A DNA stretch of 10,296 bases, taken from the IMG/VR virus record IMGVR_UViG_2548876863_000020, positions 1 through 10,296 of that record. One strand, 5' to 3'. This document shows positions 1 through 10,296 of the stretch, in pieces; within the stretch, counting starts at the first letter, position 1, and each line of letters opens with the position of its first letter. The notes under the pieces are model-generated. The model was not told the DNA's origin, searched no databases, and saw only the letters and a program-made list of their open reading frames with translations. The translations under genes were made by a program, and so were the position numbers. The DNA comes from a virus (Duplodnaviria; Heunggongvirae; Uroviricota; Caudoviricetes).

Positions 1-201
1 TTACCCATTGGCGCGGCTTAAGAGCTTATTTTTGAATTCACAATGGTCACGATATAACCATCTTGCTCGCCCGTGGATAACTTTGGCTTTAGGCAGGTCT
101 CCGGACTTAATCCGGTCATAGATGAAGGTTTTACCGAAGCCAGTATCAGCCATGATGAATTTCAAATCAACCAGTGAATCAGGCTGTAGTTCGTGTTGCA
201 T
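1..201 (-). CDS. Excisionase-like / AlpA-family small DNA-binding protein (66 aa)
   Basis: Complete ORF, ATG at 201..199 with GGAGA 8 nt upstream, stop at window base 1. Motif IMADTGFGKTFIYDRIKSGDLPKAKVIHGRARW matches the winged-helix AlpA/Xis pattern (TG..K.TIY..I..G.FP..K.G.R..W). Sits at the distal end of the leftward operon where lambdoid phages carry xis next to int. Confidence 0.6.
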   Translation of the reverse strand: MQHELQPDSLVDLKFIMADTGFGKTFIYDRIKSGDLPKAKVIHGRARWLYRDHCEFKNKLLSRANG

Positions 202-242
202 GAGTGCTATCTCCGAATAGGGAATCGAACCTGCAAATCAGG

Positions 243-266
243 CAATAAAAAACCGCATTGATGCGG
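243..266 (-). terminator. Putative intrinsic terminator (minus strand)
   Basis: Minus-strand RNA CCGCA-UCAA-UGCGG followed by UUUUUUAUUG; 5-bp GC-rich stem plus U6 tract, between the 114-aa gene and xis. Confidence 0.4.
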
Positions 267-323
267 CGATGGTAGGTCTGGATATCTTGATAAATGAAAA
301 TGCCTCATCGAGTGTGAGGCGGG

Positions 324-668
324 TTAGTCCTTGCGTAGCTCGCTGATTCTTCTGTAAGTCTCTGGTGCTTTGTTCCCGTACGTCTTCATTTCAGACTTCA
401 ACAGAGCAACGAGTGAATCCCATTCGTTGAGGATTCCTTTGAATGCCGGAACGCGCTTTGCAACCTTGTCGAATGAATCTCTGATTTCTGGAATCTGCTC
501 AACAAGTGCAACGCATCGTCGGAAATCTGCTGCGTCATGTGGAGCGCCGAAGTGATGACCATAGATATTCTTTTTCAGTCCACATGCGATTGAGGCAATA
601 GTTGCGCTACTGATGCCGACATCGCCAGTCGATTGCCATTTCAAAACCTTCATAGCCAAATCTGACAT
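324..668 (-). CDS. Hypothetical protein (114 aa)
   Basis: ORF-track frame 324..695; start refined to ATG 668..666 (MSDLAMKVLKW...) because GGAG lies 8 nt upstream and the upstream extension would run through a terminator hairpin. No family recognised. Confidence 0.6.
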   Translation of the reverse strand: MSDLAMKVLKWQSTGDVGISSATIASIACGLKKNIYGHHFGAPHDAADFRRCVALVEQIPEIRDSFDKVAKRVPAFKGILNEWDSLVALLKSEMKTYGNKAPETYRRISELRKD

Positions 669-675
669 TTCTTGT

Positions 676-702
676 CTCCAATAAAAAACCGCCATCAGGC
701 GG
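676..702 (-). terminator. Putative intrinsic terminator (minus strand)
   Basis: Minus-strand RNA CCGCC-UGAU-GGCGG followed by UUUUUUAUUGG. The stop codon TGA of the 55-aa ORF lies in the loop. Confidence 0.5.
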
Positions 703-862
703 CTTGGTGTTCTTTCAGTTCTTCAATTCGAATATTGGTTACGTCTGCATGTGCTATCTGCGCCCATATCATCCAGTGGTTATAACAGTCGTTGATGTTC
801 TCTGCTTCGATAACCCTGTTGAATGGTTCTCCATTCCATTCACCTGTGACTCGGAAGTGCAT
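695..862 (-). CDS. Small hypothetical protein (55 aa), below the ORF-track size cutoff
   Basis: ATG 862..860 with GGAG 7 nt upstream; translates MHFRVTGEWNGEPFNRVIEAENINDCYNHWMIWAQIAHADVTNIRIEELKEHQAA; stop 697..695 inside the terminator hairpin. Confidence 0.4.
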   Translation of the reverse strand: MHFRVTGEWNGEPFNRVIEAENINDCYNHWMIWAQIAHADVTNIRIEELKEHQAA

Positions 863-870
863 TTATCATC

Positions 871-900
871 TCCATAAAACAAAACTCGCCGTAGCGAGTT
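871..900 (-). terminator. Putative intrinsic terminator (minus strand)
   Basis: Minus-strand RNA AACUCGC-UACG-GCGAGUU (7-bp stem) followed by UUGUUUUAUGG, about 43 nt downstream of the 63-aa ORF. Confidence 0.5.
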
Positions 901-942
901 CAGATAAAAGAAATCCATCAATTGGTTAGGGTTTTTGTAATT

Positions 943-1134
943 CTACGAATTATGTTGTTTTTTAGCTTCAGCTTTCCATTCATCAAAGGCAGTGTCTTTG
1001 TTCATGGTGCTGATATTGATCTTACGGTCAATATCATATACACGCCACTCACCGTTAGGCCTCTCTTCGCATCTAACTAAGTATGAATTGCCATTAATAT
1101 CTATGCGTCTGTCTATTTGCATGAACATTTTCAA
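943..1134 (-). CDS. Small hypothetical protein (about 61-63 aa)
   Basis: ORF-track frame. Start ambiguous: TTG 1134 has AGAGGA 8 nt upstream; in-frame ATGs at 1128 and 1122. No family recognised. Confidence 0.5.
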   Translation of the reverse strand: MKMFMQIDRRIDINGNSYLVRCEERPNGEWRVYDIDRKINISTMNKDTAFDEWKAEAKKQHNS

Positions 1135-1245
1135 TTTTCGAATCCTCTTTAATATGCATTTTTTGCTATTTCAGTAGTTTACTATTGATGAGGCGTTATT
1201 ATACACACTTCATTAATGCAAGCATCTTTATGCTATGCTACTAAT

Positions 1246-1527
1246 TTAGCAATTGATATTCACCTTTATCGCGTATACCTTTACCGGCTTATCACCGAAG
1301 TGGGGGTGTGTGATTGTTTTCACTTCATATCCTCCATACGGAACATCAATTCTGCGACTGGAGTCGTCGCGCTTCGGATATCCCTTTGTGATAATCAGGC
1401 GGTCATACTCCCGGAACATAATTCGCTTATTCCAATAGTCATTACACAGGCGATACTCTTCCGTTTTCTCTCCTCGAATCATGGCATCGAAGTATTCACC
1501 TTTGACGGCAAGTTGTAGGTTAGCCAC
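1246..1527 (-). CDS. ASCH/DUF3850-like (PUA-fold) protein, tentative (93 aa)
   Basis: GTG start 1527..1525 with AGGAGG 6 nt upstream; overlaps the upstream gene stop by 8 nt. N-terminal pattern L.L.VKGEYFDAMIRGEKTEEYR resembles ASCH/DUF3850 as recalled; not verified by search. Confidence 0.4.
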   Translation of the reverse strand: MANLQLAVKGEYFDAMIRGEKTEEYRLCNDYWNKRIMFREYDRLIITKGYPKRDDSSRRIDVPYGGYEVKTITHPHFGDKPVKVYAIKVNINC

Positions 1528-1822
1528 GGTTAACCTCCTGCGGAGTAGCCTTTACAAGCACTGGTGCAAATCCATCTTCATTAAGGTTATGAATATAGAC
1601 TTCTGTTCTCCTGCGCTCTTCAACGTTTAATATTGTTTCTGGATCATAAACCCATACTTTCATTCGACTATTCCATGAAGAAATCGCTTCAGATCTAGTT
1701 CGTTTTTCTGGTCCTTGGGCACCACATTTGCATGACACATAGCGCATTTTCCCTCTGATACTGAATGAGTATCCGATGTTAAGCACAGTGGAACCACAGA
1801 ATGGGCAGCGATATAGATTCAT
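1520..1822 (-). CDS. Zinc-ribbon protein, Lar-like restriction-alleviation family candidate (100 aa)
   Basis: ATG 1822..1820 with AGGTGG upstream and ATGA overlap with the upstream gene. N-terminal CPFCG...CKCG four-cysteine ribbon is the motif I associate with the Lar family; the C-terminal 50 aa is an unrecognised extension. Confidence 0.45.
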   Translation of the reverse strand: MNLYRCPFCGSTVLNIGYSFSIRGKMRYVSCKCGAQGPEKRTRSEAISSWNSRMKVWVYDPETILNVEERRRTEVYIHNLNEDGFAPVLVKATPQEVNRG

Positions 1823-2520
1823 AAATCATCCACCTTAGGCGCAGCTGAGACAGCAACATTCCAGAACTCAGAAAACATATTGTATGCACCAGATAGATTG
1901 GAAGTGGCATACCCTCCAAGCTCACTTCTAATCTGAACGGCTCTCATCATTTCCGGTGTTAACTCCTTCGGCACCATAACCCAACCATCCGGAGTTACCG
2001 GAGAGTTGCCATCCAGCGCGTTCAACTTGTAAGCCTGGCTTACAGGTTCGGCTTCCAGTTCTGCTATGCGCTTCTCTGATGCTTCAAGTAACGCCTGCTT
2101 ATCGCGTAGCGCTTCTTCCAGTTCAGCAACATGGCACTCACTATCAATAAGGTTGTTCTCTGCGGCTTCCAGCTCAACACGCAGCTTCCCTACCGTTAGC
2201 GCAATATCCTCGTTCTCCTGATCACGGTTTTTGATGTATTGCTGGTTTCTTTCCCGTTCATCCAGCAGTGCCAGCACGGTAGCCGGATTGGCTGCAGCGA
2301 TGAATTCAGCATTGGCCTGCTGTTCCATTTGGAAATCTTCATCGAAACCGCTTTCAGGATGCGCTCCTTCAATTCTGCAAATAGGAATATATCCAGCAAC
2401 TTCACGATGAATTAGCGCATCATCACCATCAAATCGGCTTTCTCCATATTCGAGCGACCACTCACCACACGTTGCTTTTTCTGCCGCTTCACGCAGTGCC
2501 TGATAGTTAATTTTGGTCAT
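1819..2520 (-). CDS. Ead/Ea22-like family protein (233 aa), tentative
   Basis: ATG 2520..2518 with GGGTGA upstream. N-terminal INYQALREAAEKAT and internal LLDERERNQQYIKNRDQENEDIALTVGKLRVELE coiled coil resemble lambda Ea22-like proteins as recalled. Confidence 0.5.
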   Translation of the reverse strand: MTKINYQALREAAEKATCGEWSLEYGESRFDGDDALIHREVAGYIPICRIEGAHPESGFDEDFQMEQQANAEFIAAANPATVLALLDERERNQQYIKNRDQENEDIALTVGKLRVELEAAENNLIDSECHVAELEEALRDKQALLEASEKRIAELEAEPVSQAYKLNALDGNSPVTPDGWVMVPKELTPEMMRAVQIRSELGGYATSNLSGAYNMFSEFWNVAVSAAPKVDDL

Positions 2521-2521
2521 A

Positions 2522-2821
2522 TCACATCACCCTGAAGCCGTTGCATTTACGTAAGAAATCGCAGATATAGCCCTTCATTTTTTCATGCCAATCTCGATCA
2601 TTCCCATTGCACCAACCATCAGGTGGAGTCCAGTTTTCTATCAGAGCAGCCATTTTCTTTGCTTTCGCCGGAGTAGCTGTTGCGGTATCGCAGTAATGAC
2701 GAGTGTCAACCAACGCATCCATACCATCGATATCAAGTACGCAAAACCATGTGTGATTCGGCATTTCAACAGATGGTATTTGTTGCCCACGTCGACGTTT
2801 ATCAATAAGACATACAGTCAC
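2522..2821 (-). CDS. Hypothetical Cys/His-rich protein (99 aa)
   Basis: ORF-track frame 2522..2854; start refined to GTG 2821..2819 because AAAGGAGG lies 6 nt upstream and it forms a GTGA overlap with the stop of the 210-aa gene. Confidence 0.55.
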   Translation of the reverse strand: MTVCLIDKRRRGQQIPSVEMPNHTWFCVLDIDGMDALVDTRHYCDTATATPAKAKKMAALIENWTPPDGWCNGNDRDWHEKMKGYICDFLRKCNGFRVM

Positions 2822-3450
2822 TGGTTGCCTCCTTTGCGAAGCTGTTCCGCCCATTCTTCAAGGGATTTCTCCGCATATTCACCAGACAGGCCATCAATCG
2901 GACGCGGTTCATTAGCCAACTCTTCTTTTGCTGACAAAATCATGCGTGTAACGTCGAAAACTTCACGCAAAGACTTATTGATAAATCCGTGATTGAACGC
3001 AGCAGCAAGACGGCTGGCGGCATAGTTAATCCCCTCGTTGCGTGCTTCCGCACGTACTTCAGCAAGGAAAGCGTCGGTGGCTGGGGTATTTTCCATTAGT
3101 TTTTTTGACGTTGACCAAAGCGCGGAAAGCCACTCTTTATCAAACCATTTATCCTTATGGTGAAACATTTCATCAACTGTCTGGTGGCAGCGGGATACCT
3201 CAAAAAGGCACCGCGCATTCTCCGCCGCCAGCGCTGAAAACTTCTCGTGTGCCAACTTAACAGCCGAATCAGCCTGCTTAATTGACTCAATCGCTCTCTG
3301 TTGGTCTTCGGACAGAGCCGAAATCTTGGCCTCCGCTTCAGCAAATTTACGCACCAGATATTCAGCGTTTGTTTCGTTAACCTTTAAATCTCGTGGAATG
3401 CATTTACCTTTCAGAAAACCATCCATCTCAATTAGTGTCATTTGTTTCAT
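2818..3450 (-). CDS. Hypothetical protein (about 210 aa), predicted helical/coiled-coil
   Basis: ORF-track frame 2818..3468 (GTG); ATG 3450..3448 preferred, with GGAG about 10 nt upstream. No family recognised. Confidence 0.6.
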
Positions 3451-3607
3451 TTTTTTCCACTCCGCCACATCGCATTCAGATATTTGTTGTCATTAACAGA
3501 ACCGAAACTCTTTCTCTTAAGCAATTCCTCTCTCGATGGCATTGGTTTTACGCGTTGGCGAATAATCATTTCTGCCGGAAGAATGCCGGGATTGTATGCA
3601 AGTCCTC

Positions 3608-3889
3608 TCATGATTTACTCTCCATGAACTGGTCAACAGCCATGCTAAGTGATACACCTAACGTCTCGATATGCTGCTGAATATCCTGTAGCGTCTGCGC
3701 CTGAGATAACAGGATTTCACGGTTGCATAACTCTTTAACCAGATGCTCAAACTTGCTGTAATAACCGATACGACTGAGCGTTTCTTTCCCTGCATTCTCG
3801 CCTTCTTTGATAATTCCTCTTTCGCTAAGAATCAGGTCGTGTTTGGTTCCGGTAATAACGTATTTTCCGAGGTCGATGTTTAGCTTCAT
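3608..3889 (-). CDS. Hypothetical protein (93 aa)
   Basis: ORF-track frame, ATG 3889..3887, same strand and tight spacing with neighbours; weak RBS. No family recognised. Confidence 0.55.
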
Positions 3890-3905
3890 TGTTAATTATT
3901 CCATG

Positions 3906-4220
3906 TTAATTTATTCGTATGCCTGCTCTTTCTTCATCGAGTTTTTTTAGCTTGTATCGCATAGCCCTTACTGAATAAATTGAGCGGCAGGTTGCAATTG
4001 CTATTTCTTCTGCGGAGAACTTACCGAAAAGTGATACTTCGGCTCTTGTCCAGCGTCTTCCACGAAGTCGGCTAACAATGTCAGCTCCAATCCTTGTTGC
4101 TTTCGCCATTACTGCTTTTTCAGTCCTTTCCAGTTTTTCAGCGATAACTTCAACTGGCATTGTTGCCGCTACTTCGCACAAGAAATCGACTTCCCATTTC
4201 TCCCATGGAGTCTTTTTCAT
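3906..4220 (-). CDS. Hypothetical protein (104 aa) with an internal tandem repeat, possible DNA-binding
   Basis: Two roughly 40-aa halves share a W..EV..F...S/P.EEIA...R pattern (PWEKWEVDFLCEV...VEVIAEKLERTEKAV versus RRWTRAEVSLFGKFSAEEIAIATCRSIYSV). Confidence 0.55.
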   Translation of the reverse strand: MKKTPWEKWEVDFLCEVAATMPVEVIAEKLERTEKAVMAKATRIGADIVSRLRGRRWTRAEVSLFGKFSAEEIAIATCRSIYSVRAMRYKLKKLDEERAGIRIN

Positions 4221-4231
4221 AGTCGATACCG

Positions 4232-4720
4232 TTATTTGATAAGAAGTGAAGGTTTCCCAACTTTGAGTTGAGCGCCGGGGATATTTATTCCTGCTTTTAG
4301 TTGGTGTTTGATTGCCAGTTTGTCGGCTTTAATTGTCGTTTCAAACTCAACGTATTCAGGAGGAAGGGCGCTTGAGTCGATGATTTCTACAGTTTCTGAC
4401 GGTTTGCGGATTGTTACTTGGTGAATACCTGCTCGAATCTTTTTCTTGCCAACCATTTCAAGCGATGACGCTATATACGCCATAATGCTGTCAATCTTAT
4501 TTTGAATTACTGCGGCTCGTTCATTCAGTGACTTTGCCTCGTCCTTGAGGCGTTCAGCATAACCAGATTCATTTTTAATAATGGCGAGAAGTTGCTCTAT
4601 TTTATCGGTAAATTCTCCTTCCATTCCTTCTATTGTGTCAGCAATCATCTCTGGCTCTAAATCTGAATCCATCAATTTTGCGTATTCATTGGCTATTTCA
4701 TATAGTTTGCTCACTGGCAA
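4232..4720 (-). CDS. Coiled-coil recombination-associated protein, possibly Sipho_Gp157-like (162 aa)
   Basis: ATG 4720..4718 with GGAGG 6 nt upstream; overlaps the recT 3' end by 23 nt. Size, predicted coiled coil and position next to recT fit Gp157-family proteins; assignment is from memory only. Confidence 0.4.
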   Translation of the reverse strand: MPVSKLYEIANEYAKLMDSDLEPEMIADTIEGMEGEFTDKIEQLLAIIKNESGYAERLKDEAKSLNERAAVIQNKIDSIMAYIASSLEMVGKKKIRAGIHQVTIRKPSETVEIIDSSALPPEYVEFETTIKADKLAIKHQLKAGINIPGAQLKVGKPSLLIK

Positions 4721-5600
4721 CCTCCAGTTTCGCTTTGCATTCTATGTAAATGGCTTGTACGTTCTGCTGCAATTTCATTCCAGATGTCAGGCGATATGCT
4801 TCTGCAAAATATCGCTTCAAATCATCCATGTTTTCTGCCTGAGCCATTTCATCACAAAGAAGTTGTGCTTTTTCCATTATTTCCTGCTGGCGTTTCCGTT
4901 CATCTTCGCGGATATCTTCCTCTGATTTGTGCGGCATAACTGGTTCCTGATGCATACCTTCATCTTCGTTAAGCAGGTGAATGGCATTATCCAGTCGCTG
5001 GGCTTTAGGCCAGTATTTGCTGGCGCGTTTAACTATGGTTTTACGCGCCATCTCTTCCCAGAATGTCTTCCACGGTCCATTCTTTGCCTTGCTCGTTGCT
5101 TCCACAGCTTTAATTTCTGCCAGACTCATTTCTTCAGTCAGGTAGTCACCATCTGCTGTTTTAACCGTGCAATAACCTCCAACAATAGAGCCTCGCTCAC
5201 CAAATGCGTTGTATTTGTGGGTTGGTGCTGAATCAAGGCCATTTGATTCATAGGTGTCGTTTGAGTACACCAGTTTGCATTGCCCCCACTTAATTGATCC
5301 TGTCGATTGCGCAAGATGAAGTAATCCCATGTAACTGATATCAAGGCACACCATGCCGTCGCGAGGAACCAGATAAGCAAGTTTGCTGGCCGGGTTTAAG
5401 GTGATGCCGATCGCCGCAACATTGATGATGGCGTTCTGTGCGCTGGTTGGATTTGCCAGTGCTGTTTTAGCCAGGTAATCGTTTTTCTGGAAATACTGAA
5501 TTGCAAACTGGCTTTCCTTAGCCCATGTCACCGTCTGTTCAGTCAATGCTCCGCAGAATAACTGCTCTTGCTGTTTAACGAATTCAACGATATTGCTCAT
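4698..5600 (-). CDS. recT: RecT-family single-strand annealing recombinase (300 aa)
   Basis: ATG 5600..5598 with GGAGA 6 nt upstream. Conserved segment NGPWKTFWEEMARKTIVKRASKYWP matches the RecT signature (compare Rac RecT NGPWVTHWEEMAKKTAIRRLFKYLP, recalled). Confidence 0.85.
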   Translation of the reverse strand: MSNIVEFVKQQEQLFCGALTEQTVTWAKESQFAIQYFQKNDYLAKTALANPTSAQNAIINVAAIGITLNPASKLAYLVPRDGMVCLDISYMGLLHLAQSTGSIKWGQCKLVYSNDTYESNGLDSAPTHKYNAFGERGSIVGGYCTVKTADGDYLTEEMSLAEIKAVEATSKAKNGPWKTFWEEMARKTIVKRASKYWPKAQRLDNAIHLLNEDEGMHQEPVMPHKSEEDIREDERKRQQEIMEKAQLLCDEMAQAENMDDLKRYFAEAYRLTSGMKLQQNVQAIYIECKAKLEVASEQTI

Positions 5601-5908
5601 GCAGCTTCTCCATAAATATGTCTGCGTTTGAATATTGCGAAGGCATATTCAGCCTTAACTCTTTCGGTTATTGCATCCCAGAACCATTCAGCGGCTTTTT
5701 CCTGATAGTTACAGTCATCATCTTCCAGCCAGTCGATAGCGTCCTTAGTGTGTTCATCTGGTTTATATGAGCGAAGCATTTCGCTTATTGGGTCGCAACG
5801 TTTGCAGAGGCGATCAACTTCACTGTTGATTCGCTCGTAATCTTCATCAGTAAAACTTGCGATTATTTGCGATATTTCACGCTTATCATTCAGAGTCAGA
5901 ATCATCAT
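5597..5908 (-). CDS. Hypothetical acidic protein (103 aa), immediately upstream of and coupled to recT
   Basis: ATG 5908..5906 with AGGAG upstream; ATGA overlap with the recT start. Occupies the slot that Gam/Abc-type RecBCD inhibitors take in lambda/P22; function inferred from position only. Confidence 0.6.
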   Translation of the reverse strand: MMILTLNDKREISQIIASFTDEDYERINSEVDRLCKRCDPISEMLRSYKPDEHTKDAIDWLEDDDCNYQEKAAEWFWDAITERVKAEYAFAIFKRRHIYGEAA

Positions 5909-5989
5909 CTTTCTCCTGTTCTTTGTGCTGATTGAGCATTTTGTTCATCTGACGAATGAATTCTTCGTCTGACCAGTTATCCGTAAAAC

Positions 5990-6160
5990 TCATGGACGGC
6001 CTTGTTGTTTCAAAATATCCCAAAGCTTTTCGAGCAAACTTTTCATTCTTGGTTGTTTAAAGTCTGCTCCGGTTAAAATATTTTTTCGTGAATGCTGTAC
6101 CGATAAAATCGGGTTGAAAGGGCGAACCGATGCCGCCCCTGCAATAGCGAACTGTTGCAT
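5990..6160 (-). CDS. cIII: cIII-like protein (56 aa)
   Basis: Internal ATG 6160..6158 of the 5990..6265 frame, with AAGGAG 7 nt upstream. MQQFAIAG... start and ...SLLEKLWDILKQQGRP end resemble lambda CIII (MQYAIAG...SLLERI...RLIDILNQPGVP, recalled). The 35 codons upstream in the track ORF lack an RBS and overlap a terminator. Confidence 0.5.
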   Translation of the reverse strand: MQQFAIAGAASVRPFNPILSVQHSRKNILTGADFKQPRMKSLLEKLWDILKQQGRP

Positions 6161-6220
6161 AGGATGCTCCTTCTGTTTGATTGCATAACGAAAACGCCTC
6201 GAGTGAAGCGTTATTGGTAT

Positions 6221-6250
6221 GCATATAAAAAGGCCCTCACACTGGAGGGC
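6221..6250 (-). terminator. Putative intrinsic terminator (minus strand) upstream of cIII
   Basis: Minus-strand RNA GCCCUC-CAGUGU-GAGGGC followed by CUUUUUAUAU. Confidence 0.5.
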
Positions 6251-6384
6251 AAAGAAGATTTCCAATAATCAGAACAAGTCGGCTCCTGTTTAGTTACGAG
6301 CGACATTGCTCCGTGTATTCACTCGTTGGAATGAATACACAGTGCAGTGTTTATTCTGTTGTTTATGCCAAAAATAAAGGCCGA

Positions 6385-7008
6385 CTATGCGGCTTCGGAA
6401 GGAAGTCCAATCATCTTATTCAAATCTTCTACCCGTAAAGCAGGAAGTGCTGTACTTGCTTTATCTGCTTCTTTTGGTAGCAATTCTTTGCTTTCAGGCC
6501 AAACTTCAATAAGTCGCTTAACTGTTGTGACTGAGTTCAAAGCAGCCCATACATTTGATTCGATATCCTTTTTCAAGGCTTCAAGGTTTTGTTGCAATGC
6601 GCAGATTTCATCAAACCTTTTTGTTATTTCGTGTTCTGCGTCAAACATGCATTTATCTTTAGTCGGAGTAGGGAGCAATATATCTTCTCCGTTGCCGTCT
6701 TTCCCATATGAATGCCATCCAACCCTTCTGCCAGATACAGTCAGATAAATCGAAGTAGAACGAACATCGCATGAGTAAAATGAACATCCCAGCTTTTCAA
6801 GTTCTTCACTTATAGCTACTAACTTGGATGATAACTGATCCACTTCCTCAGTTTTATTTTTACCGCCAAACGCAATAACTCTGGCGTCAAGTGCAAGCTG
6901 GTTCTTTAACTTTGTTACTTCTTCAAGTTCAGTGAAAACCCCAGACTTAATTAAAGCGTTACGAGCGATTTTCTCTTTCATTCTCGTAGTTAAGCGGATT
7001 GATGACAT
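6385..7008 (-). CDS. Hypothetical protein (207 aa)
   Basis: ORF-track frame 6385..7023 (TTG); ATG 7008..7006 preferred, with GAGAGGT upstream. Lies between ral-like and cIII-like. No family recognised. Confidence 0.65.
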   Translation of the reverse strand: MSSIRLTTRMKEKIARNALIKSGVFTELEEVTKLKNQLALDARVIAFGGKNKTEEVDQLSSKLVAISEELEKLGCSFYSCDVRSTSIYLTVSGRRVGWHSYGKDGNGEDILLPTPTKDKCMFDAEHEITKRFDEICALQQNLEALKKDIESNVWAALNSVTTVKRLIEVWPESKELLPKEADKASTALPALRVEDLNKMIGLPSEAA

Positions 7009-7021
7009 ATTAATACCTCTC

Positions 7022-7054
7022 AAATAAGAAAATAAAGGCCACCATCAGGCAGCC
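7022..7054 (-). terminator. Putative intrinsic terminator (minus strand) after ral-like gene
   Basis: Minus-strand RNA GGCUGCC-UGAU-GGUGGCC (7 bp including two G-U pairs) followed by UUUAUUUUCUUAUUU; the ral-like stop TGA is in the loop. Confidence 0.45.
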
Positions 7055-7245
7055 TTGTTGTTCTGTTTACCAAGTTCTCTGGCAATCATTGCCGTAGTTC
7101 GTATTGCCCATTTATCGACATATTTCCCATCCTCCATTACAGGAAGCATTTCTTCAGGCTTAACCATGCATTCCGATTGCAGCTTGCATCCATTGCATCG
7201 CTTGAATTGTCCACACCATTGATTTTTATCAATAGTCGTAGTCAT
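7045..7245 (-). CDS. ral: Ral-like restriction-alleviation protein (66 aa), cysteine-rich
   Basis: ATG 7245..7243. Sequence MTTTIDKNQWCGQFKRCNGCKLQSEC... matches my recollection of lambda Ral closely, and it lies downstream of N in the pL operon as ral does in lambda. Not verified by search. Confidence 0.5.
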   Translation of the reverse strand: MTTTIDKNQWCGQFKRCNGCKLQSECMVKPEEMLPVMEDGKYVDKWAIRTTAMIARELGKQNNKAA

Positions 7246-7323
7246 ACGGATAGTCCTGGTATTGTTCCATCACATCCTGCGGATGCTCTTCGAACTCTTC
7301 AAATTCTTCTTCCATATCTCACC

Positions 7324-7623
7324 TCAAATAAGTGGTTTGCTGCCTAATTTCATTTTCTGGCAACCAACACAAGTCACACCCATTTCACTGCGTGGCTTGC
7401 GGTAGTAAATACGGTTCTGTTTACGCTCGACTTCTTCTTTCTTCTTGCAGCAAAGGCTTCCTAGCGATGCTGCTTTGTCTGCTCTGACGCAACCAGAGAG
7501 CTTTAGCGCAATTTTTCGCGCCAGTCGCTGCTCTTGCATCGCCTGTTCACGTTGAGCCTGTCTGCGTGCTCTGCGGCGATTTCTGGCGTTATCGTCAGCC
7601 AGATATGTAATGACTACTGTCAT
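7324..7623 (-). CDS. N: Antitermination protein N (99 aa)
   Basis: ATG 7623..7621 with GGAGG 5 nt upstream (track ORF extends further with a non-ATG start). Arginine-rich motif NARNRRRARRQAQREQ near the N-terminus; C-terminus ERKQNRIYYRKPRSEMGVTCVGCQKMKLGSKPLI parallels lambda N (ERKNQRTWYSKPGERGITCSGRQKIKGKSIPLI, recalled). Confidence 0.85.
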   Translation of the reverse strand: MTVVITYLADDNARNRRRARRQAQREQAMQEQRLARKIALKLSGCVRADKAASLGSLCCKKKEEVERKQNRIYYRKPRSEMGVTCVGCQKMKLGSKPLI

Positions 7624-7678
7624 GTTGACCTCCGATGAAACAACTTTGGAATTGATAGTGATTGCAAAGTGGTTTCTG

Positions 7679-7707
7679 GCCCCTCGAACTGAGGGGCAGA
7701 AAGAGCA
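7679..7707 (-). promoter_or_regulatory. GC-rich hairpin with boxA-like flank in the N leader (function uncertain)
   Basis: Minus-strand RNA UGCUCUUUCU then GCCCCUC-AGUUC-GAGGGGC (7-bp perfect stem), about 55 nt upstream of the N start; no U tract after it, so not a classical terminator. Confidence 0.35.
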
Positions 7708-7936
7708 TCTCGCCACCTAATAGGTCGATGCTCGGATCGAGAGATTTAATTAACCTCGGTTTTGAAGTTATGCATTCACATAAATCCTCCTACCTCTTGT
7801 GCAGCTTTCTTGAATATGGTGGCGGCTGCATAACGCCTATGGAATTGACTTTGGCGGTGACGCGCCGGGTGCTTATCTTCCGGTTGCCGTCGTGCAGCTG
7901 CACTTCACGTCACCCCAAAGCCAACTACTCTTTGGT

Positions 7937-7978
7937 TCCCGCATTTCGGCGGGACAATCCCATCAATGTTAAAGAGCA
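7937..7978 (-). promoter_or_regulatory. nutL (boxA + boxB)
   Basis: Minus-strand RNA UGCUCUUUAAC (boxA-like; consensus CGCUCUUUA) followed after 14 nt by hairpin UCCCGC-CGAAAU-GCGGGA. The same boxA plus identical boxB occurs in the same transcript orientation downstream of cro. Confidence 0.7.
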
Positions 7979-8023
7979 TGCCAATCTGTTCCGTTTGGCT
8001 ACCAGCGTCCTGCTGATGGCTAA

Positions 8024-8052
8024 AGAATACTGTAGGTATTTTATTGTGTAAA
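8024..8052 (-). promoter_or_regulatory. pL candidate (-35 TTTACA, 17-nt spacer, -10 TATTCT on minus strand)
   Basis: Read on the minus strand: TTTACA (plus 8047-8052), spacer of 17, TATTCT (plus 8024-8029). Same -10 hexamer as the pR candidate; overlaps OL1, about 40 nt upstream of nutL. Confidence 0.45.
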
Positions 8053-8110
8053 TACCCAAGGTATTTATTTTTGGTGAAATAATGATAAGCAAATGAATAC
8101 AAAGGATATT
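8026..8110. promoter_or_regulatory. OL operator cluster (three 15-bp palindromic sites)
   Basis: AATAC-TGTAG-GTATT (8026-8040), AATAC-CCAAG-GTATT (8051-8065), AATAC-AAAGG-ATATT (8096-8110). Same AATAC-N5-GTATT motif as in the cI-cro intergenic region. Confidence 0.6.
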
Positions 8111-8197
8111 TATTTTTTTCGGTGTCTGCTTGTTCAGTGCTTTTTATGCGGGATATGTGAAGTGGATCCCGATAGCTATTGCTGCCGGGATTATGAG

Positions 8198-8566
8198 TTA
8201 GTCAGCGAAGGTTAAGACGAGAATTACCTTAATGATGTCTGCTACAACAGACACGGCCATAGATAAACCAAAGACGATCCAAGCCATAGAGATGTCTTCA
8301 CTACCATCGTATAGAGTTCCGTAATCACTGGTGTAAGGCGTAAATGTCGCGCCTTGATACAACAGGTATAAGCTTGAACCATAGAGGATAAATGCAGATA
8401 TCCCTTGTATTGCTATGATCACTAGAATCATGAAACGAGCTGATCTATGCGCCCAAGCCTGGCTTATTTTTTCTGATAGAGATTTCGCAATAAAAGCATG
8501 CGCTAAGCCGTAAATTGTCGAGATTGCCAACATCCCAAAAAAGCTTGCTATAGCGGTTCCAACCAT
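8198..8566 (-). CDS. Small integral membrane protein (about 122 aa, three predicted TM helices) co-transcribed downstream of cI
   Basis: ORF-track frame 8198..8587 (TTG overlapping the cI stop); ATG 8566..8564 with AAGGGG upstream is the more likely start. Three hydrophobic stretches of roughly 25 residues each. No terminator between it and cI. Confidence 0.65.
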   Translation of the reverse strand: MVGTAIASFFGMLAISTIYGLAHAFIAKSLSEKISQAWAHRSARFMILVIIAIQGISAFILYGSSLYLLYQGATFTPYTSDYGTLYDGSEDISMAWIVFGLSMAVSVVADIIKVILVLTFAD

Positions 8567-8583
8567 AAGCGCCCCTTGCGTGA

Positions 8584-9300
8584 TCAAACCAGCCTTAGTT
8601 TTGTCTCAATTGCAACGCCTATAATCTTGCAGTTTCCATTGATTGGCACGAGAGGCCATGCAGGGTTAAGTCCCTTGAGGTATTTATTTCCGCCGTCGAT
8701 TATCAGCTTCTTGAATGTTGCTTCGTTAGAGTCAGAAAGTTTTGCTATGACCAAGCTGCCGTTGATCGCCTCCCTTCCGGTATCGAAAAGAACGAATGTT
8801 CCCTCTGGAATGCTTAACCCAACCGGTGCCGTCATTGAATCACCTTCCACTTTAAGCCAGAACGCATTACCTTGAATATGCGCGTCAGACTCAAGCCAAA
8901 CATCTATGTCTTTAATGGTGTATGGTTCGCATGCTTCACACCACGAGCCAGCCTGGATACTGCTTAACACCGGATACCTCTTTCCTGCTCTGTATTCCCC
9001 TGCATACCTTACGTTGGCATCGCTCTTAAGGCTTTCTGCCTGTTCTGCAACCTTGGCAGCAATTGACTGGCTAAAATCAGCAATTGAGACTTGCAACAGT
9101 CGTGCAAAACCAGATGCAACCTCAACGTTTAGCGCGTTTCTGCCATTAAGATAATGCCCTACCGCTCCTTGGGTGATACCCAGTTCATCAGCGATTGAGT
9201 ATTGGGTTATTCCCAATTCTTTCTTTTTTGACTCATACAAAGCCTTAAGCCGCTTAGCGTCTTCGAGCTGTTCTGTCGTCAGTGATTTTTTATTTTCCAT
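8584..9300 (-). CDS. cI: CI-type prophage repressor (238 aa), HTH plus S24 autopeptidase domain
   Basis: Strong resemblance to lambda CI as recalled (LTTEQLEDAKRLKALYESKKKELG...). Ala-Gly cleavage site in IQAGSW, catalytic Ser in EGDSMTAP, Lys in TFKKLI. Divergent from cro with operators between them. Confidence 0.95.
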   Translation of the reverse strand: MENKKSLTTEQLEDAKRLKALYESKKKELGITQYSIADELGITQGAVGHYLNGRNALNVEVASGFARLLQVSIADFSQSIAAKVAEQAESLKSDANVRYAGEYRAGKRYPVLSSIQAGSWCEACEPYTIKDIDVWLESDAHIQGNAFWLKVEGDSMTAPVGLSIPEGTFVLFDTGREAINGSLVIAKLSDSNEATFKKLIIDGGNKYLKGLNPAWPLVPINGNCKIIGVAIETKLRLV

Positions 9301-9306
9301 AGCTTA

Positions 9307-9335
9307 ATTCTAATAGCTAAGGTACTTAAACTAAA
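9307..9335 (-). promoter_or_regulatory. pRM candidate, leaderless or near-leaderless cI transcript
   Basis: On the minus strand, TAGAAT (plus 9307-9312) ends 6 nt before the cI ATG and there is no Shine-Dalgarno, as for lambda pRM; the -35 is weak (TTTAGT). Confidence 0.35.
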
Positions 9336-9375
9336 AATACCCTAAGTATTGATTGCTTTGAATACCTGTAGTATT
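9312..9375. promoter_or_regulatory. OR operator cluster (OR3, OR2, OR1)
   Basis: AATAG-CTAAG-GTACT (9312-9326), AATAC-CCTAA-GTATT (9336-9350), AATAC-CTGTA-GTATT (9361-9375); centre-to-centre spacing 24-25 bp. Confidence 0.65.
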
Positions 9376-9377
9376 CT
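9349..9377 (+). promoter_or_regulatory. pR candidate (-35 TTGATT, 17-nt spacer, -10 TATTCT)
   Basis: -35 at 9349-9354 overlaps OR2; -10 at 9372-9377 overlaps OR1; about 30 nt upstream of the cro start. Confidence 0.5.
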
Positions 9378-9406
9378 TTGTTCATGGTTAATAACGGAGA
9401 GTGCAT

Positions 9407-9601
9407 ATGATTCGAATGACACTTGCCGATTACGCCAAAATCCATGGACAGGCTAAAGCAGCCAGTGACTTTGGTGTAATCCAGTGCGCTATCAGCAAGG
9501 CCATTCTGGCAGGCCGTAACATTATGGTTACGGTAAAGCCTGATGGCAGTGTGATTGGAGAGGAAGTTCGTCCTTTCCCAAGCAACAAGAAAAACAAATA
9601 G
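9407..9601 (+). CDS. cro: Cro repressor (64 aa)
   Basis: ATG 9407 with GGAGA 6 nt upstream (track ORF begins at GTG 9401). Resembles lambda Cro as recalled (ITLKDYA..FGQTK.A.DLGV.QSAINKAI.AGR...DGSV..EEV.PFPSNKK). Confidence 0.9.
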
Positions 9602-9607
9602 TAACAC

Positions 9608-9652
9608 CGCTCTTTAACAGTCATGGTCCTCATTCCCGCCGAAATGCGGGAA
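9608..9652 (+). promoter_or_regulatory. nutR (boxA + boxB)
   Basis: CGCTCTTTA at 9608-9616 (boxA consensus), then hairpin TTCCCGC-CGAAAT-GCGGGAA at 9633-9652, identical to the nutL boxB, immediately after the cro stop. Confidence 0.75.
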
Positions 9653-9658
9653 TACAAC

Positions 9659-9690
9659 GCGCACAAGTTGATGCGCATAACTTCTTATTA
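9659..9690 (+). terminator. tR1 candidate
   Basis: Hairpin GCGCA-caagttga-TGCGC followed by a moderately U-rich AUAACUUCUUAUU, between nutR and cII. Weak as an intrinsic terminator; could be Rho-dependent as in lambda. Confidence 0.3.
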
Positions 9691-9709
9691 GTTAAGGAAA
9701 TACTTACAT

Positions 9710-9988
9710 ATGCAACTTACAAGTACTCGCAAGAAAGCGAATGCAATTACAAGCAACATCCTGAATCGAATTGCTGTACGTGGTCAGCGAAAGGTTGCCG
9801 ACGCGTTAGGGATTAATGAATCGCAAATTTCGCGATGGAAAGACAGCTTCATCCCAAAAATGGGAATGCTTCTGGCTGTTCTTGAATGGGGTGTTGAAGA
9901 CGAGGAGTTGGCGGAACTGGCTAAGAAAGTAGCCAGAATGCTGACAAAAGAAAAAGCCCCGAAGAACGGCGAATTCTTCGAGGCCTGA
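9710..9988 (+). CDS. cII: CII transcriptional activator (92 aa)
   Basis: ATG 9710 with AAGGAAA upstream. Resembles lambda CII as recalled (KSQISRWK....[14 protein letters not shown]...A.LA..VA..LT). Confidence 0.9.
9944..9980 (-). terminator. oop-like antisense terminator inside the cII 3' end
   Basis: Minus-strand RNA CGAAGAA-UUCGCCG-UUCUUCG (7-bp stem) followed by GGGCUUUUUCUUUUG; position matches the lambda oop RNA terminator. Confidence 0.35.
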
Positions 9989-10022
9989 TGTAGAAAGACT
10001 GGATCAATCCACAGGAGTAATT

Positions 10023-10169
10023 ATGACAAAACAACTCAGTCCTTACCAGGACAAAATTCACAAACACATACTACGTGATCGCTTCCTGTCCAGCTTCAAG
10101 CAGCCTGGTCGATTCCGGGCTGAGTTGGAAAAAGTGAAGCTGATGCAGAAGGAGAAAGGTCATGAGTAA
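10023..10169 (+). CDS. Small hypothetical protein (48 aa), below the ORF-track cutoff
   Basis: ATG 10023 with AGGAG 6 nt upstream; translates [48 protein letters not shown]; stop 10167-10169. Confidence 0.4.
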
Positions 10170-10296
10170 TCTTGCAACCGTAACACATTTAAGGCCTTCA
10201 CAACGGCCTGTGGAGCGTCGTGTGGCAGAAGTTGAAGATGGTTATACTGAACCGCCCCGGGAATCCTGGAGACTAAACTCCCTGAGAAAGAGGTAA
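10162..10296 (+). CDS. Small ORF (44 aa) with an N-terminus reminiscent of replication protein O; ends at the window edge
   Basis: ATG 10162 with AGGAG upstream, overlapping the previous stop by 8 nt. [10 protein letters not shown]...[11 protein letters not shown] parallels lambda O MTNTAKILNF...RNVADLDDGYA (recalled); stop TAA at 10294-10296. Every forward frame has a stop in the last 60 nt. Confidence 0.4.

Follow-up and report, generated by a model that had tools for sequence, protein, structure and literature searches.

Kil and CIII of phage lambda, listed as 'host cell division inhibitory peptide' and 'protease FtsH-inhibitory lysogeny factor' (gene table, PMC10695390), are short, non-essential early-left products, and the operon that encodes them also carries orf28 (lambdap47), a short open reading frame (ORF) which a genome-wide study of lambda by CRISPR interference (CRISPRi) lists as a non-essential hypothetical protein (PMC10695390). 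No paper found by our literature search gives a function to orf28, and a full-text search of the literature with the peptide sequence produced no match. Here we report on orf28 in a stretch of 10,296 nucleotides from a Caudoviricetes virus (IMG/VR record IMGVR_UViG_2548876863_000020, positions 1 to 10,296; this whole stretch is called the window below), where it lies between an N-type antiterminator gene and ral. We conclude that orf28 is very likely a real protein-coding gene under purifying selection on its peptide, and we infer that it is translated in vivo. The peptide has no sequence similarity to Kil or CIII, is shorter and is extremely acidic, but we think, by analogy, that theirs is the functional class that it most resembles.

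The T4 Stp peptide, which has about 26 residues and is not known to be acidic, acts on the type Ic restriction enzyme EcoprrI. Stp is a very small early phage peptide tied to a type I enzyme, and orf28 adjoins genes for type I restriction alleviation, namely, ral and a Lar-family gene; however, there is no detectable similarity between the two peptides and a restriction link for orf28 is speculative. Ocr and ArdA each fold, have more than 100 residues and imitate B-DNA over a long stretch, whereas orf28 encodes a 28-residue peptide that is modelled mostly as coil. Ocr (T7) and ArdA (ColIb-P9) are strongly acidic, are encoded by mobile elements, are the first to be expressed upon entry and work against EcoKI (PMC9410887). 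A DNA mimic of this type would be a folded, elongated domain with a DNA-like array of carboxylates. For the 28-residue peptide, AlphaFold2 (P0109, with a small family alignment) gave mostly coil with a predicted local distance difference test score (pLDDT) of 66 and a predicted template-modelling score (pTM) of 0.13, and on this model a classical mimic of the Ocr/ArdA type is unlikely. The model is consistent with a disordered peptide that would fold on binding.

A further group of described systems acts through the nascent chain. Acidic residues among the initial 30 amino acids cause pausing that EttA relieves and that carries over to a co-translated downstream gene (aceB-aceA; PMC11282234), and the intrinsic destabilisation of the ribosome by poly-acidic stretches in early elongation is countered by EttA and YbiT (PMC11162784). 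Like these acidic motifs and the MgtL leader, orf28 has an Asp/Glu run within its first 30 codons and is a short ORF coupled upstream of another gene (PMC11282234, PMC11162784), and at least two acidic residues in a row among its first 30 codons satisfy the definition used for such motifs (PMC11282234). The EttA/YbiT motifs, however, need just 2-3 acidic residues and no C-terminal motif, whereas orf28 has a conserved motif of 14-17 residues, and unlike leaders of this type orf28 survives without a coupled downstream gene.

That the ORF in the window is lambda orf28 is, for practical purposes, certain. The lambda coding sequence (CDS) in J02459 at complement 34271..34357 (AAA96576.1) has a translation 100% identical to the window peptide, and it overlaps lambda ral (34087..34287) by 17 nt as in the window. 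The DE3 record has the same peptide at 100% amino-acid identity, labelled "orf28; similar to lambdap47", Salmonella phage UAB_Phi20 labels its copy "similar to bacteriophage lambda lambdap47", and in an hmmscan residues 1-28 aligned with positions 1-28 of the 28 positions of PHROG 16060 (phrog_16060; function unknown) with an E value of 7.1e-19. Lambda orf28/PHROG 16060 and the window ORF agree in the peptide, in the overlap with ral, in the Shine-Dalgarno and in their place within the pL operon. A first-pass annotation of the window had called the ORF unannotated, and in this it was mistaken because orf28 is a CDS in the lambda, DE3 and UAB_Phi20 records, stands in the gene table of PMC10695390 and has its own PHROG. 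Pipeline annotations do skip it, among them the NCBI RefSeq annotation for E. coli, yet 883 of 5426 complete genomes of this species carry it; its 87 nt may be too short for the gene callers of such pipelines. In the J02459 record the orf28 CDS is mislabelled 'ral(restriction alleviation;66)', which is the product label of the true ral CDS, an annotation slip that hides orf28 from keyword searches. Therefore, orf28 is already known as an ORF and is a "known unknown" rather than a discovery. What appears to be unrecorded, as far as the searchable literature shows, are the purifying-selection figures, the separability from ral and the association with the Lar family. The ORF and the elements around it in the window are the following.

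7229..7315, minus strand: orf28, the lambdap47 homologue, with an ATG start and 28 codons, from the ORF listing, MEEEFEEFEEHPQDVMEQYQDYPYDYDY
7319..7325, minus strand: Shine-Dalgarno GAGGTGA of orf28, 3 nt 5' of the ATG, from the sequence
7324..7623, minus strand: N-type antiterminator gene of the phage 21 type, 99 residues counted from the ATG at 7623
7045..7245, minus strand: ral, antirestriction protein Ral, 66 residues, Pfam PF11058, E 6e-48
7254..7257, minus strand: AGGA within orf28 (codons Q20-D21), 8 nt 5' of the ral ATG, from the sequence

The ORF listing bears out a 28-residue acidic ORF at 7229..7315, as the first-pass annotation had described it, with the start ATG at 7315..7313 and the stop at 7231..7229. 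The peptide has 8 Glu and 4 Asp, so that 12 of its 28 residues are acidic, and with neither Lys nor Arg its net charge is about -12. The GAGGTGA (7325..7319) that had been reported to overlap the N stop does overlap it, the TGA of the N-type gene being at 7326..7324. The claim that the orf28 stop overlaps the ral start was right in so far as the two genes overlap, by 17 nt and in different frames, but the stop lies 11 nt past the ral ATG (7245..7243) and not on it. The AGGA at 7254..7257 is, from its sequence and spacing, likely the Shine-Dalgarno of ral itself, and CAGGAy in this putative region is kept among orf28 homologues. Since there are 183 ORFs of at least 20 residues in the window, 101 of them with 20-40 residues, a 28-codon ORF is not unusual by itself. 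It is the most acidic of the 183 (43% Asp/Glu; the runner-up has 27%), and it is one of just 5 ORFs of 20-40 residues that have an ATG plus a Shine-Dalgarno-like sequence. The acidic residues occupy 7 of the 9 positions right after the Met (MEEEFEEFEE...). Because trypsin cannot cut a peptide without Lys or Arg, tryptic proteomics would miss orf28.

Homologous regions were gathered first via Ral and not via the ORF in order to avoid circularity. In this way orf28 was found intact in all of 83 Ral loci (80 from the viral collection and the lambda, DE3 and CUS-3 records), with occasional single substitutions. Salmonella P22-like phages, in which ral has about 83-86% DNA identity, also have orf28, and when ten divergent Ral proteins (63-80% identity) were traced to their contigs it was upstream in seven. 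It is also present in Providencia and Kluyvera genomes, and the set of homologues found via Ral spans eight genera: E. coli, Salmonella, Cronobacter, Proteus, Providencia, Pantoea, Erwinia and Kluyvera. Many of these loci are closely related and the locus counts are not counts of independent events. The homologues in this set have 22-28 residues, all their indels are in frame, each copy ends inside ral, and every divergent homologue has a Shine-Dalgarno-like purine run 5' of its start.

In codons 2-23 of the same set, which lie outside the ral overlap, the minimum numbers of changes at codon positions 1, 2 and 3 are 7:8:36. The ratio of non-synonymous to synonymous differences per site (pN/pS), summed over pairs, is 0.16 in the orf28 frame and 5.8 and 1.26 in the shifted sense frames; these ratios are simple pairwise counts on short sequences with saturated synonymous sites and use no phylogeny. 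Coding on the opposite strand was rejected since the two antisense frames that are open gave pN/pS of 1.8 and 3.5; the third has 2-5 stops per sequence. That two antisense frames are open at all is because the sense strand is rich in GAA and GAG. In an extended set of 77 unique sequences the changes are 5:8:33 by codon position (binomial p = 1e-7), but the invariance of motif residues within this set is circular as the set is partly derived from the motif pattern. At both proline positions all four synonymous codons occur, and most replacements are between E and D or among Y, F and H.

These figures bear directly on whether orf28 is a chance ORF or, as the first-pass annotation had allowed, a non-coding spacer that is conserved only via overlapping signals, namely, the stop of N and the ribosome-binding site and start of ral. 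The abundance of ORFs of this size in the window, the several frames that stay open in GAA/GAG-rich sequence and the CRISPRi result without a phenotype (PMC10695390) would fit with this. A spacer, however, does not explain the excess of third-position changes, the pN/pS of 0.16 or indels that are only in frame, nor does it explain that the E/D and Y/F swaps are conservative over eight genera, that every homologue has a strong Shine-Dalgarno and that orf28 is maintained after ral is lost. We consider the spacer explanation extremely improbable, and on the substitution pattern it was rejected. Conservation of the reading frame in related phages was among the checks that had been proposed, with indels or stops counting against a gene; the frame is conserved and the substitutions are of the coding type.

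Members of the family have 22-30 residues and two parts, a variable N-terminus and a conserved motif. The N-terminus is a poly-Glu/Asp run of variable length that is interrupted by Phe or Ile, and the motif is F-[DE]-E-H-P-x-D-x-M-x-Q-Y-Q-D-Y-P-[YF]-[DE]-[YFH]-D-[YF]. Positions 13, 15 and 17 are variable and alternate with the conserved D14, M16 and Q18. From this alternation we infer that the peptide may be extended and may touch a partner via one face. A mimic of the SSB C-terminal tail was considered and rejected because the last residue may be Y, F, H, N, S or D and the length of the tail varies by 2-3 residues. A query of two concatenated variants found only family members, which had been called with spurious extensions at the N-terminus, and gave no candidate for a host protein mimicked by the peptide.

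Pattern scans of viral and metagenome collections showed five arrangements of the locus. The common form is N-[sieB]-orf28-ral-hairpin, and its last element lies in the window as follows.

7025..7056, minus strand: terminator-like hairpin (7056..7035) and T-run, with the ral stop codon in the loop

The same hairpin family is found 3' of lambda ral. Where ral is absent the hairpin lies directly 3' of orf28, which suggests that ral was cleanly excised in these lineages, and from the arrangement orf28 would seem to be part of the leftward operon's promoter-proximal portion. In the second arrangement, which has no ral, orf28 overlaps the 3' end of a 77-residue restriction-alleviation gene of the Lar family (PF14354 at 36.6 bits, where the gathering score is 28.6; TIGR03655; PHROG "Lar-like"), and the hairpin comes right after the orf28 stop. 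This form is in at least 9 viral contigs, to which the metagenome scan adds more contigs of this type, some of which are the same sequences, and all are from one related lineage. In these lambdoid metagenomic contigs the Lar gene was located at L152 3632..3865 (minus strand) and also in L207, L218, L251, L253, L259, L261, L262, L264, L277-L283 and L286. At these loci the TGA stop of the Lar gene is inside the orf28 Shine-Dalgarno (GGGAGGTGA), the same stop-in-Shine-Dalgarno junction as between N and orf28 in the window, and a 28-residue hydrophobic ORF lies 3' of the terminator hairpin. In the third arrangement orf28 stands alone after N or other small genes and is followed by a hairpin (L249, L266, L270, L268, L275, L284).

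The fourth arrangement is the converse, ral without orf28. Citrobacter-type prophages (L112, L113, L123, ~604..804) have in place of orf28 an unrelated 66-residue ORF (MAKITFGFCGAEKAHAVQKGIRAAGFRTINTSDEHGFYVHV...), with an ATGA overlap onto ral and no Pfam match on record. In Kluyvera georgiana (L124/L125 ~780-830) orf28 is cleanly missing, and the GTG of ral sits directly on the Shine-Dalgarno and start (GAGGTGAGATGTG) that serve orf28 in Kluyvera genomosp. 1 (L106). This is a natural experiment showing, as far as can be read from the junction, that the initiation region of orf28 is used.

In the fifth arrangement orf28 is intact and ral has an out-of-frame internal deletion. This form is in 10 E. 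coli prophage contigs (L135, L137, L138, L141, L184, L202, L222, L230, L238, L240), which have different flanks; the deletion corresponds to about 7100-7205 of the window. It joins ...QWCGQ to ...WAIRTT to give MTTTIDKNQWCGQYERRQ* and apparently took place at a GGnCAAT microhomology.

The ral-less loci are informative because the last five codons of orf28 are freed there from the overlap. In these codons the changes are 1:3:7 by codon position and pN/pS is 0.13, the swaps being solely aromatic for aromatic and acidic for acidic, and the ral ATG is no longer conserved (TAT becomes TAC or TTT). In the remainder of orf28 at these loci the changes are 1:1:16 and pN/pS is 0.07. Since the constraint persists without ral, the peptide is evidently selected for its own sake, and by these comparisons orf28 and ral are separable in both directions.

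The same arrangements bear on whether the peptide has no separate function and binds Ral or Lar, which are small Cys-rich proteins, as a chaperone, cofactor or antidote. Its tight linkage to ral with translational overlap in most loci would be expected of such a partner, as would, in another lineage, its overlap with the 3' end of a gene of the Lar family, and the fusion ORFs of orf28 to Ral in assemblies (P0001, P0011) and a variant upstream of ral that has a CxxC...HxC extension on the motif (P0128) also speak for it. On the other hand, orf28 is kept under purifying selection without an adjacent Ral or Lar (L249, L268, L275, L284) and is kept where ral is a pseudogene, Ral occurs without orf28, and lambda-type and P22-type phages have an identical orf28 while the identity between their Ral proteins is only about 72%. 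When the natural fusion P0011 was modelled with AlphaFold2, the orf28 segment had a pLDDT below 50 and no predicted docking, a weak test as it had no predicted aligned error and a shallow alignment. We regard a mere partner of Ral or Lar as very unlikely.

The predicted fusions of the orf28 N-terminus to Ral are in public assemblies (P0001 with 76 member sequences, P0005, P0011, P0099) and are due to a frameshift or a small deletion where the two ORFs overlap; they may be real variants or assembly errors. The variant P0128 (L271/L272 2501..2671) has 56 residues, with the CxxC...HxC segment at its N-terminus and the motif (DDFDEHPADDMGQYQDYPYDYDY) as a C-terminal tail, and it keeps the 17-nt overlap with ral. 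No solved structural relative of Ral was found.

A more serious alternative is that it is the translation of orf28 that matters and not the free peptide. The acidic run would make elongation prone to pause or abort in a manner dependent on EttA/YbiT and on Mg2+ or energy, and orf28 would tune the overlapping ral by coupling, or hairpin formation in ral-less loci, as an attenuator or arrest peptide like MgtL or TnaC. The 17-nt overlap, the 7 acidic residues among the 9 after Met and the precedents for acidic-run pausing and destabilisation (PMC11282234, PMC11162784) all favour such a leader. A length of 22-30 residues would suit the ribosomal exit tunnel, ral is coupled to another upstream ORF by an ATGA overlap where orf28 is missing, and ral-less loci have a hairpin like an intrinsic terminator at the stop, immediately after it in one hairpin family and about 18 nt on in the other. 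A leader is also expected to end at or just after the downstream start, and the orf28 stop, 11 nt past the ral ATG, is so placed. A leader for ral, however, is expected to be lost or to decay once the downstream gene is lost, and this is not what we found, as orf28 is intact and under purifying selection in ral-deleted, Lar-linked and stand-alone loci. In addition, ral has its own AGGA 8 nt 5' of its ATG. It is the C-terminal motif that is best conserved while the acidic run is least so, its length varying by 1-4 codons, and the spacing between the HP motif and the stop differs by 2-3 codons (L106, L118, L246, L182), which would be awkward for arrest at the stop. In the minimum free energy fold (z = -2.3) the start of orf28 is paired with that of ral, but this predicted pairing has no covariation support and an Rfam search of the orf28 region gave no match. 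A reading based on this RNA structure was dropped because the wobble base of Pro23, which is in the middle of the helix, takes all four bases in homologues. A cis-acting leader is thus possible but, in our judgement, rather unlikely.

Based on these findings, the explanation that we favour, with confidence that is no better than middling, is that orf28 acts in trans as a micro-protein of the Kil/CIII class. It would be translated from its own strong Shine-Dalgarno in the early-left (pL) operon of lambdoid phages, directly after N here. The disordered and strongly anionic peptide would then fold onto a basic surface of a host protein, blocking it or acting as a decoy, and it would bind through the specific C-terminal motif plus the anionic tail to a target that would be conserved throughout the Enterobacterales. 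Its synthesis would be early, alongside functions for restriction alleviation (Ral in lambda, 21 and P22; Lar in a further lineage), on which it does not depend. The first-pass annotation had raised action as a DNA mimic or an inhibitor, and our best guess for its nature is an inhibitory micro-protein of the decoy type.

Several points weigh against a trans-acting peptide. Leader or arrest peptides of the TnaC, SecM or MgtL type would likewise show purifying selection on amino acids, and the selection signal alone cannot separate action in trans from action in cis. Some phages that have Ral have no orf28, and the peptide has no match in Pfam, NCBIfam, PADLOC or PDB sequences. CRISPRi knock-down of lambda orf28 gave no plaque phenotype, in a strain that has no type I restriction (PMC10695390), and lambda strains from which orf28-ral is deleted have served as viable phages (PMC2327257). 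The Lar link rests on one closely related lineage and so represents one evolutionary event, and the region of lambdoid genomes in which orf28 lies is rich in accessory genes in any case.

The position of orf28 beside two unrelated families of restriction-alleviation genes, Ral and Lar, hints at a link to type I restriction, and its target might belong to the type I restriction-modification pathway. This is speculative and we hold it to be unlikely, because the Lar link is a single event and because accessory genes are common in this region anyway. The broader proposal that orf28 founds a family of anionic phage micro-proteins of 22-30 residues, independent, mobile effectors of anti-defence or host takeover that act together with Ral and Lar yet are separable from them, is less likely still. 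Such an effector, expressed from the first transcript of lambdoid phages, might, for example, bind HsdM, HsdR or another conserved host protein that binds nucleic acid.

By megablast the N-orf28-ral block is found in lambdoid and P22-like phages, and the window as a whole, which is a mosaic, is related to HK140, HK620 and phages of that kind. The N gene of the window has about 97% DNA identity to N of phage 21, DE3 and lambda imm21, and its product gave a weak match to Pfam N_peptide (E 8e-4) that is under the gathering score. In lambda and P22 sieB lies on the opposite strand between N and orf28, whereas in the window and in phages 21, DE3 and CUS-3 orf28 comes directly after N; unlike lambda, the window and the 21/DE3/CUS-3 type have the N stop inside the orf28 Shine-Dalgarno. 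Just 5' of lambda orf28 (L001 ~459-485; compare 7316-7345 of the window) there is a degenerate 3' end of a 21-type N, AATCCACTATTTAAGGTGA against AAACCACTTATTTGAGGTGA, and the N gene of lambda itself has another end sequence (ATTCCTCTTATCTAG), which lies about 680 nt further upstream. This remnant beside lambda orf28 suggests either insertion of the sieB segment between N and orf28 or a mosaic joint at that point. Downstream of ral the window differs from lambda in having a 212-residue ORF at 6385..7023, and in lambda a small RNA, PreS/LPR1, has been reported between ral and ea10 (PMC12197685).

A profile search of genome contigs with the Ral alignment gave mostly lambda DNA contamination and 2 informative loci. 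Lambda-identical ral/orf28 DNA was on contigs that are short or about 48.5 kb long (L084-L102, L104, L105, L107), many of them at about 1x coverage, in assemblies of Pseudoxanthomonas, Nocardioides, Shewanella, Paenibacillus, Bradyrhizobium, Enterococcus and others. In these taxa such contigs are almost certainly lambda DNA contamination.

Although lambda is the reference temperate phage, orf28 is still 'hypothetical' and most annotation pipelines skip it. It illustrates how micro-proteins without Lys and Arg escape both gene callers and tryptic proteomics. As an ORF that is under purifying selection across at least eight enterobacterial genera, outlives ral and travels with Lar, it is a concrete and cheap experimental target, and it bears on how temperate phages handle type I restriction or other early host barriers. 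Should it prove to be a leader that acts only in cis, it would exemplify, in a phage, control via pausing on an acidic nascent chain. If it is an autonomous effector, it would be one of the smallest counter-defence proteins of phages, left unstudied in the phage that is known best and carried by about one-sixth of complete E. coli genomes.

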